Below, in pieces: positions 2,535-54,434 of a DNA stretch of 64,000 bases. The stretch comes from Candidatus Uhrbacteria bacterium. GTDB lineage: Bacteria > Patescibacteriota > Patescibacteriia > UBA9934 > GWF2-40-263. Location: NCBI GenBank assembly GCA_023246355.1, contig JAHFIQ010000005.1, positions 3,086 through 67,085 of the forward strand, in the 5' to 3' direction. Position numbers and translations under genes: made by a program. The first letter of the stretch is position 1, and each line of letters starts with the position of its first letter. The notes beneath the pieces are model-generated. The model had not been told where the DNA came from. It searched no databases and saw nothing but the letters and a program-made list of their open reading frames with translations.

Positions 2535-2922
2535 TGGTGGAGCTGGGGAGAATCGAACTCCCGTCTGGAAGGATTCGCACCGTGATGGTTCCAAGTTCAT
2601 TCACGCCTGATACCTTGCCACGCTCAAGGCGTGAAGCAATACGTGACAAGGAGCCGATCGCAACTCTTGAACATGAGAGATCGGTGACCTCATGTTCCAG
2701 CCTGATGATATAACACCCGACTGTTGGTTATCAGACGTCACCAACGCGGATGGCCCTCAGCTTACGCGAGGACAGGGGCAAAAGATGGAACGCGAAATGC
2801 ATTCTTGATCATTGCCATGACGTTGTTTGCAGTTGTCGTCGTGCACGGAAATATTTACGAGCTGCCGTACCGGCTCGACTTGATCACGGATGGTAGGCCT
2901 ACCATCGATACCGATCAGCCCC
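2535..2922 (-). ncRNA. ssrA: tmRNA (SsrA)
   Basis: On the minus strand the 5' end GGGGCUGAUCGGUAUCGAUGG pairs with the 3' end ...GGGAGUUCGAUUCUCCCCAGCUCCACCA. This gives a tRNA-Ala-like acceptor with a G3:U wobble, a T-loop GUUCGAUUC and an encoded CCA. Candidate tag ORF ...AFRVPSFAPVLA-UAA. Lies next to smpB. Confidence 0.8.
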
Positions 2923-2996: not shown

Positions 2997-4385
2997 ATGA
3001 CGCATGCCCACCATTCTTCTCCTGCCCCAGCTTCTGTACCACGCACCGATCCTTTCTTCGCGGATTCTGCCAATGATCGCGTGGTGCGCGGACCGCACCA
3101 TCGTCGTTTCCTGCCACCCTCGCAGATGTTTCTCATCAGGATGGGACTCGAAAGCTACCGTCGTGACCATCCCGGACGTCCAACCTTCGATGCCTCGCAA
3201 GGGGACGGCGGCGCGAGTCTGGGAGGCATCCCGCACCGGGAGCTCGTAGAGGCACTGGACCGGTTTCTTCCCAGCGTTCACGCAACGGCCTACGGTACAC
3301 CGCAAGGTGACGTGCGAGTTCGCGCGGCGATCTTTGCGAACTACTACCGGCTCTCGCCTGACTCCGGCCTCACGCCCGATCATGTGGTCCTCACCGACGG
3401 CGGACGCGATGCACTCTCCAAGTGGTACCAGGCGATCCAGATTCTGGCCGGCGTATCAGGAGACTGTCTGCTCACCTCGGCCGCTCCGTGGATTTCCTAC
3501 GGCCACGGTTCGTATCTTGCAGGGTTGAACCTGCTGTGCGCGCCATCGACCGACGGAAGTTTCAAGATCACACCCGAAGGTGTGAAGGCCAGCATCAAGT
3601 TTGCCTCTCAAGAAGTCTATCGTGTTCGAGCGCTGGTGATCACCACACCTGACAATCCTACCGGAACCTTCTACACGCAAGAGGAAGTGGTCGAGCTCAT
3701 TCAGGAGGCAACGGATTGTGGTTTGAGCCAGATCCTTGTGGACCTCATGTACCAGACCGTGCTGGATGATGACCATGTGCGGTACGACATTCCAGCGATC
3801 CTGGCTGCCCTCTCACCTGAAGCACGTCGTCGCGTGACGTTCATGGACGGACTCACCAAGTCGGCAGGAGCGAGCAATGTTCGCCATGCACACTTGCTGT
3901 GCGGCGACCTGCACATGGCAAAGTGTCTGACCGCCATTGCGTCCCACACGGTGCTTCCCAATGTGTTGGGAGAAGCTGCAGCGTTTGAGGTCTATGGAGC
4001 TGAGCATCCTGATCAGCATCCCTGGATTCGCCGTGTGGTTGAACCGACCACCAAGAGTCGAGCGCTGTTCCGTGCCAGGATGATGGGATTTGACCATCGC
4101 TTCGTTGCAGATCAGGGCTACTACGGGTTCGTGCATGTGGCACCGTGGTTGGAACGCCGTGTGCCTGACCATCTCATGTTCCGTGATGCGCGTGATCGAG
4201 TCATCGAAACCATTCATGACACCAATGATTTGGTCGCGTACCTCACGGCCCGTCATGGCCTCGCGGTCGTGCCAGGCGCCCCGTTCCATCAACCCGAGTT
4301 CATTCGCTTCAGTCTCGCGAACACTCCCGACTACACCGGAGCCGCTGTGGTGCGCTTCAACGAAGCCCTTCACGCACTCGAGTAG
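2997..4385 (+). CDS. PLP-dependent aminotransferase, class I/II
   Basis: LVITTPDNPTGTFYT and FMDGLTKSAGASNVR (PLP lysine) motifs. GGAG RBS 8 nt upstream of ATG 2997. The 2724..2996 part of the listed ORF overlaps ssrA and is rejected. Confidence 0.7.
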   Translation: MTHAHHSSPAPASVPRTDPFFADSANDRVVRGPHHRRFLPPSQMFLIRMGLESYRRDHPGRPTFDASQGDGGASLGGIPHRELVEALDRFLPSVHATAYGTPQGDVRVRAAIFANYYRLSPDSGLTPDHVVLTDGGRDALSKWYQAIQILAGVSGDCLLTSAAPWISYGHGSYLAGLNLLCAPSTDGSFKITPEGVKASIKFASQEVYRVRALVITTPDNPTGTFYTQEEVVELIQEATDCGLSQILVDLMYQTVLDDDHVRYDIPAILAALSPEARRRVTFMDGLTKSAGASNVRHAHLLCGDLHMAKCLTAIASHTVLPNVLGEAAAFEVYGAEHPDQHPWIRRVVEPTTKSRALFRARMMGFDHRFVADQGYYGFVHVAPWLERRVPDHLMFRDARDRVIETIHDTNDLVAYLTARHGLAVVPGAPFHQPEFIRFSLANTPDYTGAAVVRFNEALHALE

Positions 4386-45062: not shown

Positions 45063-45178
45063 CTCCCAAAATCGATGAGATTACCTTGAACGGGGAAGCC
45101 AGCCGCCGAGACGTAGGTAAATCCTACGTTGAGGAGGTGGCGGGGCCCCGTGAAAGGTAAGATCGCGATTTTGGGAGG
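45063..45178 (+). repeat. 118-nt long-hairpin repeat element, copy b
   Basis: cctcccaaaatcg...cgattttgggagg terminal stem. About 88% identical to copies a and c. Sits in the convergent intergenic gap between two GT2 genes. Confidence 0.7.
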
Positions 45179-47100: not shown

Positions 47101-47931
47101 GTGGGCTGGTCAGAGATGGCTCTGAGGTGTTCTGTGAACGTGTTCATTGACCAGATGGTGGATTTCAAGAATCGTTTCTTCCGGCTCGGTGGGACGATGG
47201 CGCTTTTCCTCAACCTCCTCGGTGATGACGAGCTGATGGAGCACATGATCAAGAGCGCTGAGGAGAAGGCTAACGCCAACCCGTTCGAGCAGACGGTGGA
47301 CGAGCAGATCGCCGCGCTGCGGGCTCAGAATGAGGCTGGCAGCTGGGGCATCACCGAGGACGTGTTCGTCCGGCTCGCGCAGACCGCGCCTGCTTGGCCC
47401 AAGGGTAAGGACGCCTACCGCTCGCTCCGTATCCGTTTCGGCGAGGGGGACGAGGGAGTGGCACTCACCTTCGAACGACATGCTGAGGCCATGAAGCGCG
47501 TCCACGACCCGAAGTTCTGGCGGTGGGAATTGCTTCACTCCGGAACGGTGCCCTATCAGGGCAAGTCGGTCGAGCGCCTGCGGCTCTTGAACGGCAATCA
47601 GAGCCACAAGGCCGTCGTCGAGTGGGTAATCATCAGCGACCTGTCAGCCAACCGCACGCGGAAGGACATCACTTCCGTGCGAAGTGTCCAGTCCCTCGCG
47701 GACGAAGGCCTCGTACTGGCGTGGATGTTCCCGAAGCGGGCGCAGGCGATCGACTACGACAAGTGGTGCGCCTGGTACTGCGGAGGCTACGAGTCAAACG
47801 TCCCCGAGCACGGCGAGGAGTGGCAGCGCGTGGTGGTCGTGGGCCGCGACACCGTTTCCGGTAGGGTCCACCTGCACGCCAGCTGGCGGAGCGGCGACAA
47901 CTCGGGCTACTCCGTTCCTCCCCTCGGGTAG
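47101..47931 (+). CDS. DGR target (variable) protein; C-terminal VR
   Basis: Its last 131 bp (47798..47928) is the VR copy of the TR at 48292..48422. No signal peptide. N-terminus unverified. Confidence 0.6.
   Translation: MGWSEMALRCSVNVFIDQMVDFKNRFFRLGGTMALFLNLLGDDELMEHMIKSAEEKANANPFEQTVDEQIAALRAQNEAGSWGITEDVFVRLAQTAPAWPKGKDAYRSLRIRFGEGDEGVALTFERHAEAMKRVHDPKFWRWELLHSGTVPYQGKSVERLRLLNGNQSHKAVVEWVIISDLSANRTRKDITSVRSVQSLADEGLVLAWMFPKRAQAIDYDKWCAWYCGGYESNVPEHGEEWQRVVVVGRDTVSGRVHLHASWRSGDNSGYSVPPLG
47798..47928 (+). repeat. DGR variable repeat (VR)
   Basis: 131 bp aligned to the TR with 15 substitutions, all opposite TR adenines. Ends 3 nt before the target stop codon. Confidence 0.9.
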
Positions 47932-47951
47932 CGCTCGGAACTTGGCAGCTT

Positions 47952-48010
47952 GGAGCTCGGCAGCCCTTGGACTTCAATCCTTGGTGCTGCCGGCTCCTTT
48001 TCATTTTGTT
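47952..48010 (+). terminator. GC-rich hairpin plus T-tract immediately downstream of VR (terminator / DGR-associated stem-loop)
   Basis: ggagctcggcagc ... gctgccggctcc (12 bp, 1 bulge) followed by ttttcattttg, 20 nt after the stop. Confidence 0.5.
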
Positions 48011-48291
48011 ATAATAGTTTTGGAGAGTAGGCCAGTGCGCCGGTGTTTACGGATGCCGGTCGCCGAAATCTCTTGCAATCCCAATATGCCGTCAGAATCC
48101 AGCCTTCGCTTGAAGGTAGGAGTGTGCGGTGCGGATTGGCGAGCACTCCGCATTTCATTTTGGAACCAGCCTTCGCTGAAGCTACGGCCGGCAGGCCAGT
48201 CGAGCGTGCGAACGGCGAAGGGTTCCGCATAAAATTCAGGGTATGGATGCGTCTGTACCCAGTGTCATGGAAGAATGGAATGTGAAGGGAG

Positions 48292-48422
48292 ACGTCCCCG
48301 AGAACGACGAGGAGTGGCAGAACGTGGTGGTCGTGAACCGCAACACCGATTCCGGTAAGGTCAACCTGAACGCCAACTGGCGGAGCAACGACAACTCGGG
48401 CTACTCCGTTCCTCCCATCGGG
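48292..48422 (+). repeat. DGR template repeat (TR)
   Basis: AAC-rich (at least 9 AAC codons in frame). Invariant partner of the VR. Lies inside a spurious 69-aa ORF. Confidence 0.9.
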
Positions 48423-48466
48423 AGTTCTCATCAAGGCAAAGGGGCGCCATGAAGCGCTCCTTCATG

Positions 48467-48862
48467 CTATCCGACGACTTTCATCCATCCGCCGAGCATC
48501 CTGCCCGTGTCTATCAGTTTTGATTCCATGTTTAGATACTGAACGTTCGTGATGCATTTGCAGTCCTTACACAGCCGTACCAGCAACTTCGTGGTATCGA
48601 CCTTAGCACTCGCTTCTTTTAGTCTGACGAGCTTCTCTGTTGGAATCGACGTCGCGGCGGCACCAAGAAGGAGTTCAAGTATCGAAAGAAGATATCTGGA
48701 ACAGGTTTCGCCAAGCGTATAGCGTTGGGGTTTCGGAAATTTTTTCATCACTTCGTTCCACAGGACATAAGCATCATAAAGCGTATGTACGATTGGAATA
48801 TCGCCAGGTCCTCCGTTCAACAACGTTCGTTCTTCCCGATTGAGTCGGGGGGGGGGTGTCAC
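48467..48862 (-). CDS. avd: Accessory variability determinant (Avd)-like four-helix-bundle protein
   Basis: 131 aa with KFPKPQRYTLG...LGGWMK features of Avd. Divergent from the RT and overlapping its 5' end. Confidence 0.6.
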   Translation of the reverse strand: MTPPPRLNREERTLLNGGPGDIPIVHTLYDAYVLWNEVMKKFPKPQRYTLGETCSRYLLSILELLLGAAATSIPTEKLVRLKEASAKVDTTKLLVRLCKDCKCITNVQYLNMESKLIDTGRMLGGWMKVVG

Positions 48863-49844
48863 TATTCATAAGGCAGAAGCTCGTGATTTATTTGATCGTT
48901 TGGTTTCGATTGAAAATTTGTTTTTGGCGTGGAGACGTTTCTGCAAAGGAAAACGGAGTCGTCATGATGTGATGGTATTCGAACGGAGGCTGGAAGACAA
49001 TCTTTTTGCTATCCGTGAGGAACTTCTTTTCGGATTGTATCAGCACAGTCGGTATGAGCGATTCACCATTCACGATCCGAAAGAGCGAACAATCCACAAA
49101 GCGATCATCAAGGATCGGGTTGTTCACCAAGCTATCGTGAACATTATTGAGCCACTATTCGAGAGAGGTTTCATTTTCGACAGCTTTTCTTGTCGTGTTG
49201 AGAAAGGAACACATGCTGCAGTACGAAGGCTGCGAATGTTTTTGCATCGAGCATCCCAAAACGATACGAAAACGGTCTATGCGCTGAAATGCGATGTGCG
49301 GAAGTTTTTTGACTCTGTAAACCATTTGGTTCTGCTAGAGCTGCTTGCCAAGCGGATTGAAGACCCTGCGACTATCAGGGTCCTTAAAAATATTATCAGT
49401 AGCTTTTCTGTTTTACCTCATACAGGTATTCCGCTTGGGAATCTCACGAGCCAGTTATTTGCAAATATCTATCTTCACGAACTCGACTGGTTCGTGAAAC
49501 AGAAACTTCGTGTCAGATATTATGTCCGTTATTGTGATGATTTTATTATGCTGTCGCTGTCCAAGACAGAAGCAGTGGTTTTGATTGAACAAGTTGACGC
49601 ATTCCTGCAGGAGCGTCTTAAGGTCCAACTCCATCCCAACAAGGTTCACGTTCGCACTTGGACGCAGGGTGTAGACTTTCTTGGTCACGTTCTTCTTCCA
49701 CGAGCAACTATTCTTCGTCCAACAACCGCTCGTCGTGTCATTGAACGTGCTACGAGAGAAAACGCTACGTCTTACCTTGGTTTGTGTGTCCACGCCGATG
49801 CCTACGAAGTCCGTAGAACGATCATGAATAAAACAAACATCTAG
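48840..49844 (+). CDS. DGR reverse transcriptase
   Basis: RT motifs 1-7. YCDD catalytic motif. Motif 4 reads LGNLTSQ (the I/LGxxxSQ DGR hallmark). 334 aa, TTG start. Confidence 0.8.
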   Translation: MSRGGGVTIHKAEARDLFDRLVSIENLFLAWRRFCKGKRSRHDVMVFERRLEDNLFAIREELLFGLYQHSRYERFTIHDPKERTIHKAIIKDRVVHQAIVNIIEPLFERGFIFDSFSCRVEKGTHAAVRRLRMFLHRASQNDTKTVYALKCDVRKFFDSVNHLVLLELLAKRIEDPATIRVLKNIISSFSVLPHTGIPLGNLTSQLFANIYLHELDWFVKQKLRVRYYVRYCDDFIMLSLSKTEAVVLIEQVDAFLQERLKVQLHPNKVHVRTWTQGVDFLGHVLLPRATILRPTTARRVIERATRENATSYLGLCVHADAYEVRRTIMNKTNI

Positions 49845-49856
49845 CTGCTTCAAATG

Positions 49857-49910
49857 CCGTGGCACGTCGTTCCCGCCAAAGGCGGGCGCGGCGCGAACGA
49901 CGTGCCGTGG
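49857..49910 (+). other. Strong compound stem-loop after the RT gene
   Basis: 16-bp outer stem ccgtggcacgtcgttc/gaacgacgtgccgtgg (2 G-U in RNA) enclosing ccgcc-aaa-ggcgg. No U-tract follows. Confidence 0.5.
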
Positions 49911-49925
49911 TATAGTACAACGAGA

Positions 49926-50043
49926 CCTCTGAAAAACTCGATGAGATTGCGATGCGCGGGGAAGCCAGCCTCCGAGACGTCGAAAACTACGTTGAGGAGG
50001 TGGCGGGGCCCCGCAAGTCGCAAGATCGCGAGTTTTGCAGAGG
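49926..50043 (+). repeat. 118-nt long-hairpin repeat element, copy c
   Basis: cctctgaaaaactcg...cgagttttgcagagg terminal stem. About 90% identical to copies a and b. Confidence 0.7.
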
Positions 50044-50057
50044 TCCCAATCGTTTTT

Positions 50058-51227
50058 ATGGACAAGGCTCACCTCACCATCGCCCATGTGGTCTGCACCT
50101 ATCCACCGTATCGCGGAGGGATGGGGAATGTTGCGCATGAATATGTCGAGCGACTCAGAGCTCGGGGCTACAACGTGCACGTGTTTACCATTCAAGATAC
50201 AGAAATAGATGATGACCCGCGCTATGTGCACCGCATTCCCGGCATCATCCAAATTGGAAATGCCGGAGTATTACCGTCGCTATTTCATCGCCTGTCTGGT
50301 TTTGATCTGGTTCATCTTCACTATCCTTTTTTTGGCGGCGCAGAACCGGTCATTGTGAGAAAAGCCATGACGCAGGATCAAGGACTTGTCATGACCTATC
50401 ACATGGATAATTTCGGTGCAGGTGTCAAAGGCGCGCTGTTCAGTGCCCATCGTCGCCTGTTATTTCCGTGGCTCGTGAATCGCGTGGACAGAATTTTGGT
50501 GAGCTCCATGGATTATGCCAAACATTGTGCGCTGGCTGAATTGGATGTGATGGACAGAATCGAAGAACATCCCTTTGGCGTGGATCTGGAGCGGTTTCAT
50601 TCAGGCGTGGAGCAGGAGTTGCGTGTGCGTCACCACATCAAACAAGACGTACCCGTTTTGTTGTTTGTGGGTGGGCTTGATGCCGCGCATGAGTTCAAAG
50701 GACTTTCCGTTTTGTTTGAGTCACTCAGTCATCTTTTGAATCAAGAGTGGCATCTGGTGATCGTCGGGGACGGGGCACTCAAGGAAACGTATCGAGAACA
50801 GGCACGCGAGAGAGGGCTCGGCGATCGTGTGACGTTTGCAGGAGCTGTCTCGCAGGATGATCTCCCGCGTTATTACCGTCTGGCGACGGTGCACCTGTTT
50901 CCTTCAACAAAACGCGCGGAGTCCTTTGGATTAGTCGCCCTGGAAGCTGCTGCCTCTGGAATTCCTTCCATCGCGTCAGATCTTCCGGGCGTCAGAACCG
51001 TTGTGCGTGACGGAGATACGGGACTGCTCGTTTCGCCTGGGGATGTTGAGTCACTGAAAAAAGCCATCCTCACCCTGCTTGAACAACCAGACTTGCGATC
51101 ACGCCTTGGTCTTTCAGCGCGAGTGAATGCACAGGCGCACTATCACTGGGAGCCGCTCATAGATCGACTGGAGGCGACGTATGATTCTGTCTTGGGGCAG
51201 CAAGCAAAGCGTCACTATCGAGTATGA
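50058..51227 (+). CDS. Glycosyltransferase family 4
   Basis: Start MDKAHLTIAHVVCTYPPYRGGMGN. GT4 C-terminal domain ESFGLVALEAAASGIPSIASDLPG. Confidence 0.7.
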   Translation: MDKAHLTIAHVVCTYPPYRGGMGNVAHEYVERLRARGYNVHVFTIQDTEIDDDPRYVHRIPGIIQIGNAGVLPSLFHRLSGFDLVHLHYPFFGGAEPVIVRKAMTQDQGLVMTYHMDNFGAGVKGALFSAHRRLLFPWLVNRVDRILVSSMDYAKHCALAELDVMDRIEEHPFGVDLERFHSGVEQELRVRHHIKQDVPVLLFVGGLDAAHEFKGLSVLFESLSHLLNQEWHLVIVGDGALKETYREQARERGLGDRVTFAGAVSQDDLPRYYRLATVHLFPSTKRAESFGLVALEAAASGIPSIASDLPGVRTVVRDGDTGLLVSPGDVESLKKAILTLLEQPDLRSRLGLSARVNAQAHYHWEPLIDRLEATYDSVLGQQAKRHYRV

Positions 51228-52809: not shown

Positions 52810-52835
52810 GCGGATCATGGAGACTCTCGGGATAT

Positions 52836-52896
52836 GGGGTCAGGTCGGGTTATGGACATTTTGAAAAACAGAATGTCCATAACCCGACCTGACCCC
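52836..52896. repeat. REP-like perfect hairpin (24-bp stem)
   Basis: ggggtcaggtcgggttatggacat - 13-nt loop - atgtccataacccgacctgacccc. An identical stem occurs at 54370..54430. Confidence 0.75.
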
Positions 52897-52900
52897 ACCT

Positions 52901-53800
52901 TCACTTTCCTCTGCTTATTCTTCCTACCACAGATCGGTCGATACCAACAAGCTTAGCGATTTCTGTCGTTAAATATCCGCATCGCAACCGAGCAAAAACA
53001 ATCCCTTCGTTTCGTTTAGTCTTTGTCGTGGCGTCGGCAAAAATTTCCTCAAGAGTCGGTCGACCAACGATCCGTTCTTCTCGACGGTACTCCTTGAGTT
53101 CCTCTACTCCATTCGTTTTCTCCCAAATCCAACTCACGAATTGAGGACTGCCTAAGAGGAAACCGTTTGAAACGTCATCGTAAGGGTTTCTTGCATCAGA
53201 CCCTTCATCGACAAACTGTCGGTACTCTTGCTGGGCTTCCTGTTTTTTTTTCGAAAAATGAGTCAGGAGCCAATCTACGCGCAGCCACTCAGGCGAGGTG
53301 GACGCACCACAGGTTGCACGATAACTACTCCATTTCCATTCTTTTGGGTGTTTTACAAGGTGAGCGCGAACAGGATTCAAAACGATATAACGAGCCACTT
53401 CCAGAAGGTATGTCTCTTTTTCAATGACGAACGCCTTGTATCTACCTTGGAAGAGGTGTCCGACACGTCCGTGTACTGCGTTAAACCACTGAGAGTAGTT
53501 TCCGTTGAGATCTCGCATGGCAATCGCAAGGTTTGCGTCGAGTGTCTCCAAAAGCAAGTGATAGTGGTTTCCCATGAGACAATACGCGTGGCACAGGAGG
53601 TTATGTGTCTTACAAGTATCCTGAAGCCATCTCAAAAATCGACGTCGGTCATGATCGGTCAAAAAAATATCTTGTTTGGCGTTTCCTCGAGCAATGACGT
53701 GATAGAGCGCACCTGGATATTCAATACGTAAAGGTCTTGACATAGATTTTTTAATGATTTGTTTAGTTTCTTCTGGGAACATAAAACCCCCAAAATTCAA
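52901..53800 (-). CDS. REP-associated tyrosine transposase (RAYT; IS200/Y1 HUH family)
   Basis: YHVIARGN...HAYCLMGNHYHLLLE (HuH)...GHLFQGRYKA (catalytic Tyr region). True start is probably MSRPLRIEYPG. Confidence 0.7.
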   Translation of the reverse strand: MNFGGFMFPEETKQIIKKSMSRPLRIEYPGALYHVIARGNAKQDIFLTDHDRRRFLRWLQDTCKTHNLLCHAYCLMGNHYHLLLETLDANLAIAMRDLNGNYSQWFNAVHGRVGHLFQGRYKAFVIEKETYLLEVARYIVLNPVRAHLVKHPKEWKWSSYRATCGASTSPEWLRVDWLLTHFSKKKQEAQQEYRQFVDEGSDARNPYDDVSNGFLLGSPQFVSWIWEKTNGVEELKEYRREERIVGRPTLEEIFADATTKTKRNEGIVFARLRCGYLTTEIAKLVGIDRSVVGRISRGK

Positions 53801-54369: not shown

Positions 54370-54430
54370 GGGGTCAGGTCGGGTTATGGACATTCTCTTT
54401 TCCAAAATGTCCATAACCCGACCTGACCCC
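54370..54430. repeat. REP-like perfect hairpin (24-bp stem), second copy
   Basis: Same arms as 52836..52896 with a different 13-nt loop. Confidence 0.75.
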
Positions 54431-54434
54431 ATTC

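Follow-up and report, generated by a model that had tools for sequence, protein, structure and literature searches.

Diversity-generating retroelements (DGRs) are, to our knowledge, the only system of targeted protein hypermutation in prokaryotes, and how their activity is controlled in cells is a largely open matter. The question is posed in a concrete form by a DGR in a 64,000-nucleotide (nt) stretch of DNA from Candidatus Uhrbacteria bacterium (contig JAHFIQ010000005.1), the whole of which is called the window here. A G10:C10 homopolymer (48847..48856) lies at the junction of two divergent genes of this element, avd on the minus strand and the reverse transcriptase (RT) gene on the plus strand. 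Does the run control the mutator in whose genes it sits? If a conserved slippery tract shifts the frame of Avd, and in most cases that of RT as well, it would offer a simple mechanism that can be read from the genome. The run most likely acts as a random on/off switch for the mutator. A slipped-strand switch had been suggested in the first-pass annotation of the window, and the idea is strengthened by the comparative phase statistics and by the real tract-length polymorphism described below.

The retroelement and its reading frames

The element is a bona fide DGR, because all differences between its template repeat (TR; 48292..48422, plus strand, 32 adenines) and its variable repeat (VR; 47798..47928, plus strand) are confined to TR adenines. 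The two repeats are 131 nt long and 89% identical, and 15 of the 15 mismatches fall on adenines of the TR. The cassette is ordered as target gene with VR (+), TR (+), avd (-), and RT (+). This arrangement had been described as unusual, which does not hold for the host group. Architecture B3, in which a reverse-strand avd lies between TR and RT (TR-(avd)-RT), accounts for 90% of the DGRs in the Candidate Phyla Radiation (CPR) and hardly occurs outside it (Wu et al. 2018, PMC5758913). The window has this layout, with TR at 48292-48422 (+), avd at 48467-48869 (-), and RT reaching to 49844 (+). Two sets of relatives were compared with it: 80 RT relatives from species-representative genomes, mostly metagenome-assembled genomes (MAGs) of Patescibacteria with 42-67% identity, and 80 further RT relatives from metagenomes. 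In every locus with a detectable Avd (73 in the first set and 69 in the second, 142 in all), avd is found on the opposite strand directly upstream of RT. Judged by these loci, the divergent layout is unusual only against non-CPR DGRs.

The minus-strand open reading frame (ORF) 48467..48862 encodes 131 aa from a GTG start, and the protein is Avd, as its sequence pattern had led the first-pass annotation to expect. It matches the Pfam family bAvd (PF22296) with 47.3 bits, above the gathering score of 40 bits. The NCBIfam equivalog DivGenRetAVD (NF033474) aligns from residue 23 with E=1.2e-18 and 67.3 bits, under its 80-bit cut-off. The proposed comparison with the structure of BPP-1 Avd is favorable. 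An AlphaFold2 model based on 21 homologues takes on a four-helix bundle (helices 25-41, 46-72, 76-102, and 108-132) with a predicted local distance difference test score (pLDDT) of 86.6. The best Foldseek match in the PDB is BPP-1 Avd itself (4dwl_D; template modeling (TM) scores 0.72/0.88, root-mean-square deviation 1.6 Å), followed by the Avd chains of the 8UB7 DGR ribonucleoprotein, and a sequence profile search also places 4DWL first (E=0.007). Residues 1-12 form an N-terminal tail that is disordered in the model (pLDDT <50). The prolines encoded by the tract fall into this tail, which fits a region tolerant of a variable residue count; as modeled, the tail should tolerate a variable number of prolines.

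The RT is recognized by the Pfam domain RVT_1 with 76 bits against a cut-off of 29.6 bits, and its translation holds the motif IPLGNLTSQLFANIYL. The RT also has the LGNLTSQLFAN motif, which we take to be typical of DGR RTs; RTs of the DGR type carry [I/L]GxxxSQ where group II RTs have QGxxxSP. In NCBIfam, no DGR-RT family is among the matches, and the group II intron model stays below its cut-off. Gene callers begin the RT at ATG 48972 (290 aa), which removes the conserved N-terminus. The ORF that is open at the assembled tract length extends from TTG 48840 to 49844 (334 aa), and an exact look-up of this 334-aa protein in public records gave no match.

The homopolymer is translated as Pro(n) in the avd frame and as Gly(n) in the RT frame. 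Its length of ten and the reading CCC CCC CCC as Pro-Pro-Pro in the Avd frame were correctly annotated from the start, while the positions given then (48846..48855) were one base off. The tract lies 13 nt after the avd ATG at 48869 and 62 nt after an RT ATG at 48785 that lies within avd. The consequences of tract length for both frames were followed in an in-silico series of the window from G8 to G12. With G9, a 133-aa Avd is read from ATG 48869 and a 352-aa RT from ATG 48785; with G12, the products are 134 aa and 353 aa, and no other in-frame starts exist at either length. With the assembled G10, the avd ATG frame stops after 31 codons and the RT ATG frame after 28 codons. In this phase only, GTG 48862 and TTG 48840 are in frame and yield the 131-aa Avd and the 334-aa RT, each without a visible ribosome-binding site. 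With G8 and G11, both ATGs are out of frame, and for Avd only the internal TTGs at 48823/48820 are left, which are possible starts of a complete Avd core downstream of the run.

The functional starts are likely ATG 48869 for avd and ATG 48785 for RT, the latter being the complement of the His codon in the Avd sequence IPIVH. As to the check on alternative starts that had been advised, GTG and TTG are indeed in frame at G10, and the likely starts are now placed at the two ATGs. avd would accordingly span 48467..48869 on the minus strand, with an intact core ORF and an ATG that is in frame only with G9 or G12, and RT would span 48785..49844 on the plus strand. Starts at these ATGs imply an antisense overlap of ~85 nt between the two 5' coding ends (48785..48869), in codon-aligned register and with the G tract inside. 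The overlap of about 23 bp reported earlier is correct for the 131-aa ORF against the TTG-initiated ORF 48840..49844.

Recurrence and shared phase of the repeat in related loci

G10 is the only G or C run of at least 7 nt in the window. Dinucleotide shuffles of the window give an expectation of 0.18 G runs of at least 9 nt, so the G10 alone is only mildly improbable; the run is nonrandom because it recurs at the same junction in relatives. All lengths reported here are those of assembled consensus contigs. Between the Avd core and the RT core, G7-G15 is present on the RT-sense strand in 46 of 74 first-set loci (window included), and a run is found at the junction in 40 of 67 second-set loci (G7-G11 plus one G29). 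After removal of duplicates, 78 run loci are left with modal lengths of 9 and 10, and without exception it is the RT/TR-sense strand that carries the G residues. In four loci, (TC)6-7 or (GT)8-10 takes the place of the G run. The 602 kb of related loci contain 50 G/C runs of at least 8 nt, 43 of which lie at the junction (p ~1e-70); four of the seven others are located at the RT 5' end in loci that are truncated or lack avd. Loci with the run cover many CPR lineages and RT identities of 42-74%. A neighbor-joining tree of 132 distinct RT cores, 84 of them with the run, implies at least 15 gains or losses and includes one large clade without it. Across this divergence the position is kept and the length and repeat unit are not, which suggests selection for repetitiveness itself. 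One locus (L037) has no run at the junction and carries a second G10 (3629-3638) just past the 3' end of avd.

The recurrence also bears on whether the run is an artefact of sequencing or assembly, a caveat that had been raised with the first description of the tract. Homopolymers are error-prone, two-color Illumina chemistry makes poly-G artefacts, and the G29 in one related locus (L137) is implausible, being either a hyper-expansion or a poly-G assembly artefact. Against this stands the presence of the run at the same position in >80 contigs from many studies, assemblers, and years, where it is internal to long contigs and its length is reproducible over 5, 7, and 6 independent assemblies of single elements. 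For the window itself, four independent contigs with readable DNA, from two assemblers and four samples, are ~100% identical to it and all show G10. Since the run recurs in relatives and G10 recurs in independent contigs, the assembly caveat is rejected, and the chance that the tract is artefactual is practically negligible.

On the avd strand, an ATG is located 3-36 nt upstream of the C-run and is open to the run in 46 of the 47 run loci that were initially scored (the 46 named above plus one excluded later). No ATG, GTG, or TTG is present between the run and the Avd core in 27 of these 47. The public Avd N-terminus of the clade reads M-x-x-x-I-S-PPP-R...ERKLL-GGPGDIPIVH, and the gene calls for other proteins in the same 90%-identity clusters begin further downstream (117-118 aa). 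Only 21 of the 78 run loci have the upstream ATG in frame with the Avd core, and the three phases (21/34/23) do not reject uniformity (p=0.15). By comparison, 49 of the 51 run-free relatives have an in-frame avd ATG (Fisher p=3e-16), and in run-free relatives the two ATGs stand back to back. A reading of the out-of-phase loci as decaying pseudogenes was rejected, since their RT ORF measures at least 290 aa in 55 of 55 and their Avd core is intact in 54 of 55.

The RT frame follows the same phase in most loci. Two types were distinguished by an RT ATG between the run and the conserved (I/L)F..I.S.ENL start. In the 21 type II loci, the RT ATG comes 8-35 nt after the run, which affects avd only. 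The 57 type I loci, among them the window, have no RT ATG after the run. In type I, the RT frame reads the complement of avd's start codon in register, as His, in 60 of 61 cases (1/3 expected by chance; p ~1e-27), and the distance from this complement to the RT core changes only in steps of three. In 57/57 type I loci, the plus strand offers an ATG that lies 26-68 nt ahead of the run, is open to it, and matches the RT frame at the avd-on tract length (modulo 3). When the phases are compared in the first set, an RT ATG is available in the shared phase in 32/32 loci and in the other two phases in 7/32 and 0/32. This upstream ATG is mostly the complement of the His codon in IPIVH. CAT encodes this His in 25 of 33 first-set type I loci versus 1 of 13 type II loci (p=3e-5), and overall CAT outnumbers CAC 32 to 1. 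Loci that combine the same His-ATG with an interrupted tract (L007, L013, L023, L024, and L060) have both ATGs in frame and an antisense overlap of 48-93 nt.

Further evidence on the RT start comes from loci without avd. No avd was detectable in the fetched flanks of the RT relatives L049, L052, L067, L122, and L133. In such TR-RT relatives, a TR-like end and a hairpin are followed by an ATG, a leader of 2-10 codons, (G)9-11, and LK..(I/L)F.... L067 (G9) and L133 (interrupted tract) are in frame, and L049, L052, and L122 are out of frame. The tract therefore occurs in RT-only cassettes too. Public RT calls of 347-355 aa (e.g., P0065, P0071, P0078, and P0099) read through the poly-Gly stretch. 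These calls and the avd-less loci, with their order of ATG, leader, and run, are two independent lines of evidence that RT can start upstream of the run.

These data can be set against the view that the tract is noncoding, with both Avd (from TTG 48823) and RT starting downstream of it and the run altering, if anything, the promoter spacing in a short divergent region. The window does have two in-frame TTGs after the run, the NCBIfam Avd profile starts at residue 23, and gene callers often choose downstream starts that lead to 117/118-aa products. The 27 loci without a canonical start between run and Avd core argue against a noncoding tract, as do the conserved N-terminal peptide M-x-x-x-I-S-PPP-R, the codon alignment of the avd-start complement with the RT frame, and the spacing in multiples of three. 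The bias of CAT over CAC points to a selected ATG, avd-less loci read ATG-leader-run-RT, and the back-to-back ATGs of run-free relatives leave no space for an intergenic promoter. A noncoding tract is thus quite improbable.

The constant strand of the run and its place 8-35 nt upstream of the RT ATG in type II loci could also be expected of a sequence-specific motif, such as a Shine-Dalgarno-like element for RT, a G-quadruplex or R-loop former, or a binding or priming element of the DGR RNA, with the coding effects being incidental. Such a motif is difficult to reconcile with lengths from 7 to 15 that differ between identical elements, and with (TC)n, (GT)n, or interrupted tracts that stand in for the run while the frames are then intact. 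The run is also ~430 nt away from the TR, and a G10 alone is unable to form an intramolecular quadruplex. A motif function is therefore very hard to credit.

Apart from the ATGs, 28 of the 57 type I loci have an extra RT start (ATG, GTG, or TTG) shortly before the run that is in frame when the tract exceeds the avd-on length by one G; in the other off phase (+2), this is the case for 3 of 57. TTG 48840 is the example in the window, and some public RT calls (MSPGPP...) use such starts. An extra start of this kind could give RT a second permissive phase. Both genes have in-frame alternative starts in the +1 phase in only 7 of 57 type I loci, and GTG 48862 and TTG 48840 were set aside as general starts on these grounds. 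Given this rarity, the GTG/TTG pair is probably fortuitous and at most marks a low-expression state.

Tract-length variation and the proposed switch

If the tract is a switch, its length should differ between otherwise identical copies, and such differences are seen. The look-ups were keyed on identical RT proteins whose ORF excludes the run and are unbiased as to tract length. The P0160 element is represented by ten contigs from ten samples that are 100% identical over up to 2,381 nt save for the tract, which is G9 in four and G10 in six. G10 is the length at which the avd ATG is in frame, and a 128-aa Avd is called there. The P0168 element shows G9, G10 (five contigs), and G11 in 99.7%-identical DNA, with G11 in frame. 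L117 and L035 differ by a single G within 3,967 otherwise identical nt, with G9 as the in-frame length and G10 out of frame. For the strain of the window, six contigs encode exactly the 290-aa RT, and five of them carry the 131-aa Avd (G10). The sixth (SRR14366780) encodes a 133-aa Avd (P0002, MNSDTPPRLN...) that equals the exact G9 translation from ATG 48869. The contig is 1 nt shorter than its G10 counterpart, with all genes beyond the tract shifted by 1. G9 in the window strain is thus deduced from the P0002 protein and the 1-nt coordinate shift, whereas the other elements were read at the DNA level. A 77-kb contig of a slightly different strain likewise encodes P0002 (G9 Avd). The look-up for P0007 returned a single locus only, and a metagenome scan with window-specific flanks and a variable gap returned no match.

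Taken with the phase statistics, this variation makes it likely that the tract works as a slipped-strand contingency switch with joint control of Avd and RT. In the proposed mechanism, replication slippage would add or remove a G in the tract, which lies after the avd ATG (48869) and after the RT ATG within avd (48785). Both ATGs would come in frame at one shared tract length (G9 or G12 here), and because this length is shared, a single slip would turn the two trans-acting DGR proteins on or off at once, in a heritable and reversible way. At any time, mutagenic retrohoming would then be under way in only some of the cells or populations. Avd would be gated wherever tract and avd co-occur, and RT would be gated in the same phase in type I loci, so that both factors would be made only at tract lengths of one residue class modulo 3. 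The G10 copy in the window, in which both ATG frames are broken, is probably off or weakly on, and the G9 variant of the same strain is the predicted on form. From the sequences we infer that switching is frequent and reversible and that it controls DGR activity and retrohoming. Alternative starts may add a third level in some elements, this one included, with ATG/ATG giving high expression, GTG/TTG giving low expression, and the remaining phase being off.

Several points weigh against a DNA-level switch. No Shine-Dalgarno sequence is visible before ATG 48869 or ATG 48785, and a consensus scan for promoters and terminators over 47900-49200 on both strands found none, including no sigma-70-like promoter. 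If TTG 48823/48820 is used, Avd could here be independent of the tract, and with GTG and TTG in frame at G10, "off" may in fact be "low". The loci are phylogenetically related, so that the p-values overstate their independence. Consensus errors at long G runs could add noise, as could the few MAGs from Nanopore assemblies, in which homopolymer lengths are unreliable. Lastly, ~70% of the consensus sequences are out of phase, which is equally compatible with slippage at the RNA level, and one widely distributed element (P0018) has C9, the avd-off phase, in 7/7 assemblies of a look-up that is blind to the in-frame form.

The last two points lead to the possibility that it is RNA polymerase or the ribosome that slips on the G:C run. 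Every tract length would then yield some in-frame Avd and RT, the tract would act as a constitutive damper that keeps the mutator low, and the length variation in the DNA would arise neutrally, as a by-product. That transcription slips on long homopolymers is well established, and roughly uniform phases with only ~27% in frame and intact downstream ORFs would be in line with it, as would P0018. On the other hand, length polymorphism is seen in four elements, in the window strain by deduction and in the others directly at the DNA level, and the dinucleotide repeats that replace the run in some loci are classic substrates of DNA slippage and poor ones for RNA polymerase slippage. The known cases of efficient transcriptional slippage are A/T runs, which also counts against this explanation. 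Uniform phases occur under both readings and therefore cannot separate them. RNA-level slippage is considered unlikely as the explanation of the tract, and DNA switching and RNA slippage could coexist.

CPR bacteria carry very many DGRs. On balance, we lean toward the wider claim that DGR hypermutation across the CPR is governed by a built-in, heritable, stochastic master switch in which one slip toggles avd and RT. If true, the phase of the tract would predict which populations diversify, and a contingency locus in control of a diversity generator would amount to bet-hedging on evolvability itself in organisms that possess very few regulators of a conventional kind. The switch would also account for the many avd and RT genes of the CPR that look truncated or are mis-called (RT 290 aa, Avd 118 aa). 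Annotations and surveys of DGR activity that ignore the tract would misclassify both the starts and the on/off state.

Surroundings of the cassette

The target gene of the DGR is located at 47101..47931 on the plus strand (ORF of 276 aa, or 271 aa from the start at 47116 that gene callers use), and its 3' end is formed by the VR, with the stop codon 3 nt further. Four assemblies carry one and the same VR consensus. The target protein (271-276 aa) has no Pfam or NCBIfam family match. Its variable C-terminus, …WRSxDNSGYSVPP(L/I)G, may represent an unclassified variable-ligand-binding fold, and its neighbors are glycosyltransferase genes. Directly 3' of the TR, a plus-strand hairpin (48435..48468) touches the avd stop codon. 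The segment 48423-48480 that contains it has a folding energy of -20.5 kcal/mol (z = -2.8), and the hairpin is possibly a spacer structure of the DGR RNA or a terminator. A comparable hairpin follows the TR in avd-less relatives such as L049 and L067.

A direct repeat of ~110 nt (45068-45177 and 49934-50040; copies 74-83% identical) brackets a 4.9-kb block with two minus-strand glycosyltransferase genes and the entire DGR cassette. The repeat may stem from insertion or duplication of the block, or it may represent a shared leader. Its second copy is located just past the RT stop, within the 5' part of ORF 49854-51227, for which the gene call in another strain begins ~68 codons later. A 24-nt inverted repeat right after the RT stop (49854-49913; 83% complementary, 12-nt loop) is terminator-like and lacks a T-run. 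Farther downstream, 63-nt inverted repeats (52834-52896 / 54370-54432, 97% identical) flank the minus-strand ORF 52901-53800, a Y1_Tnp gene for an IS200/IS605-like or REP-associated tyrosine transposase. A transfer-messenger RNA gene (2535-2922, minus strand; tag peptide ANNVMAMIKNAFRVPSFAPVLA) is the sole Rfam or ARAGORN match in the whole window, and Rfam has no match in the repeat at 49840-50100.

Comparison with known systems

DGRs, Avd, and the B3 architecture are already known, and the new part is the homopolymer, a putative contingency-locus switch built into a CPR DGR cassette. The searchable literature (including Wu 2018, Roux 2021, DiGReF 2012, a 2021 RT review, and a 2024 survey; Paul et al. 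2017 is not covered) yielded no description of a repeat tract, of overlapping avd/RT starts, or of phase variation in DGR genes. The B3 DGRs of CPR/Patescibacteria (Wu et al. 2018, PMC5758913; DGR clade 2, Roux et al. 2021, PMC8144416) share order, orientation, and host group with the present elements, to which the tract and its phase logic are an added feature. The BPP-1 DGR (avd-TR-brt; 4DWL, 8UB7) has in common with them the adenine-specific mutagenesis from TR to VR, the four-helix-bundle Avd, and the RT motif LGNLTSQLFAN. It differs in that avd here is antisense, located between TR and RT, and overlaps the RT 5' end, and the identity of the Avd proteins is ~19%. The BPP-1 DGR genes are co-oriented, and we know of no repeat tract in them.

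Among phase-variable systems, the poly-G/C contingency genes of Campylobacter, Neisseria, Helicobacter, and Haemophilus undergo translational phase variation (PMC8355987, PMC5084427). The loci described here have in common with them a long uninterrupted repeat in the 5' coding region (a tract of 8-12 G:C that follows the ATG by a few codons), a tolerant N-terminus, length polymorphism between isogenic sequences, and a change of frame that leaves the downstream ORF intact, with about one-third of copies in frame. Alternative starts in a second phase are possible in both. In Haemophilus influenzae, lic1 has alternative starts in different frames. Poly-G/C contingency tracts usually gate one surface or modification gene, whereas here one tract would gate two divergent mutagenesis genes, and the hosts are uncultured, nonpathogenic, ultra-small bacteria.

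The hifA/hifB genes of Haemophilus influenzae have a (TA)n repeat in overlapping divergent promoters. As proposed for the tract here, one simple repeat between two divergent genes controls both. The hif switch works on promoter spacing and is transcriptional, whereas the repeat described here lies within both coding regions and would act on translation. Phasevarions are based on phase-variable DNA methyltransferase (mod) genes, and the proposed switch resembles them as a second-order switch, in which a repeat is set atop an enzyme that changes many phenotypes. If the switch is real, it would define a new class of contingency locus, with one repeat and two antisense-overlapping genes in uncultured environmental bacteria; phasevarions change an epigenetic regulon, whereas the downstream effect here would be targeted protein hypermutation.

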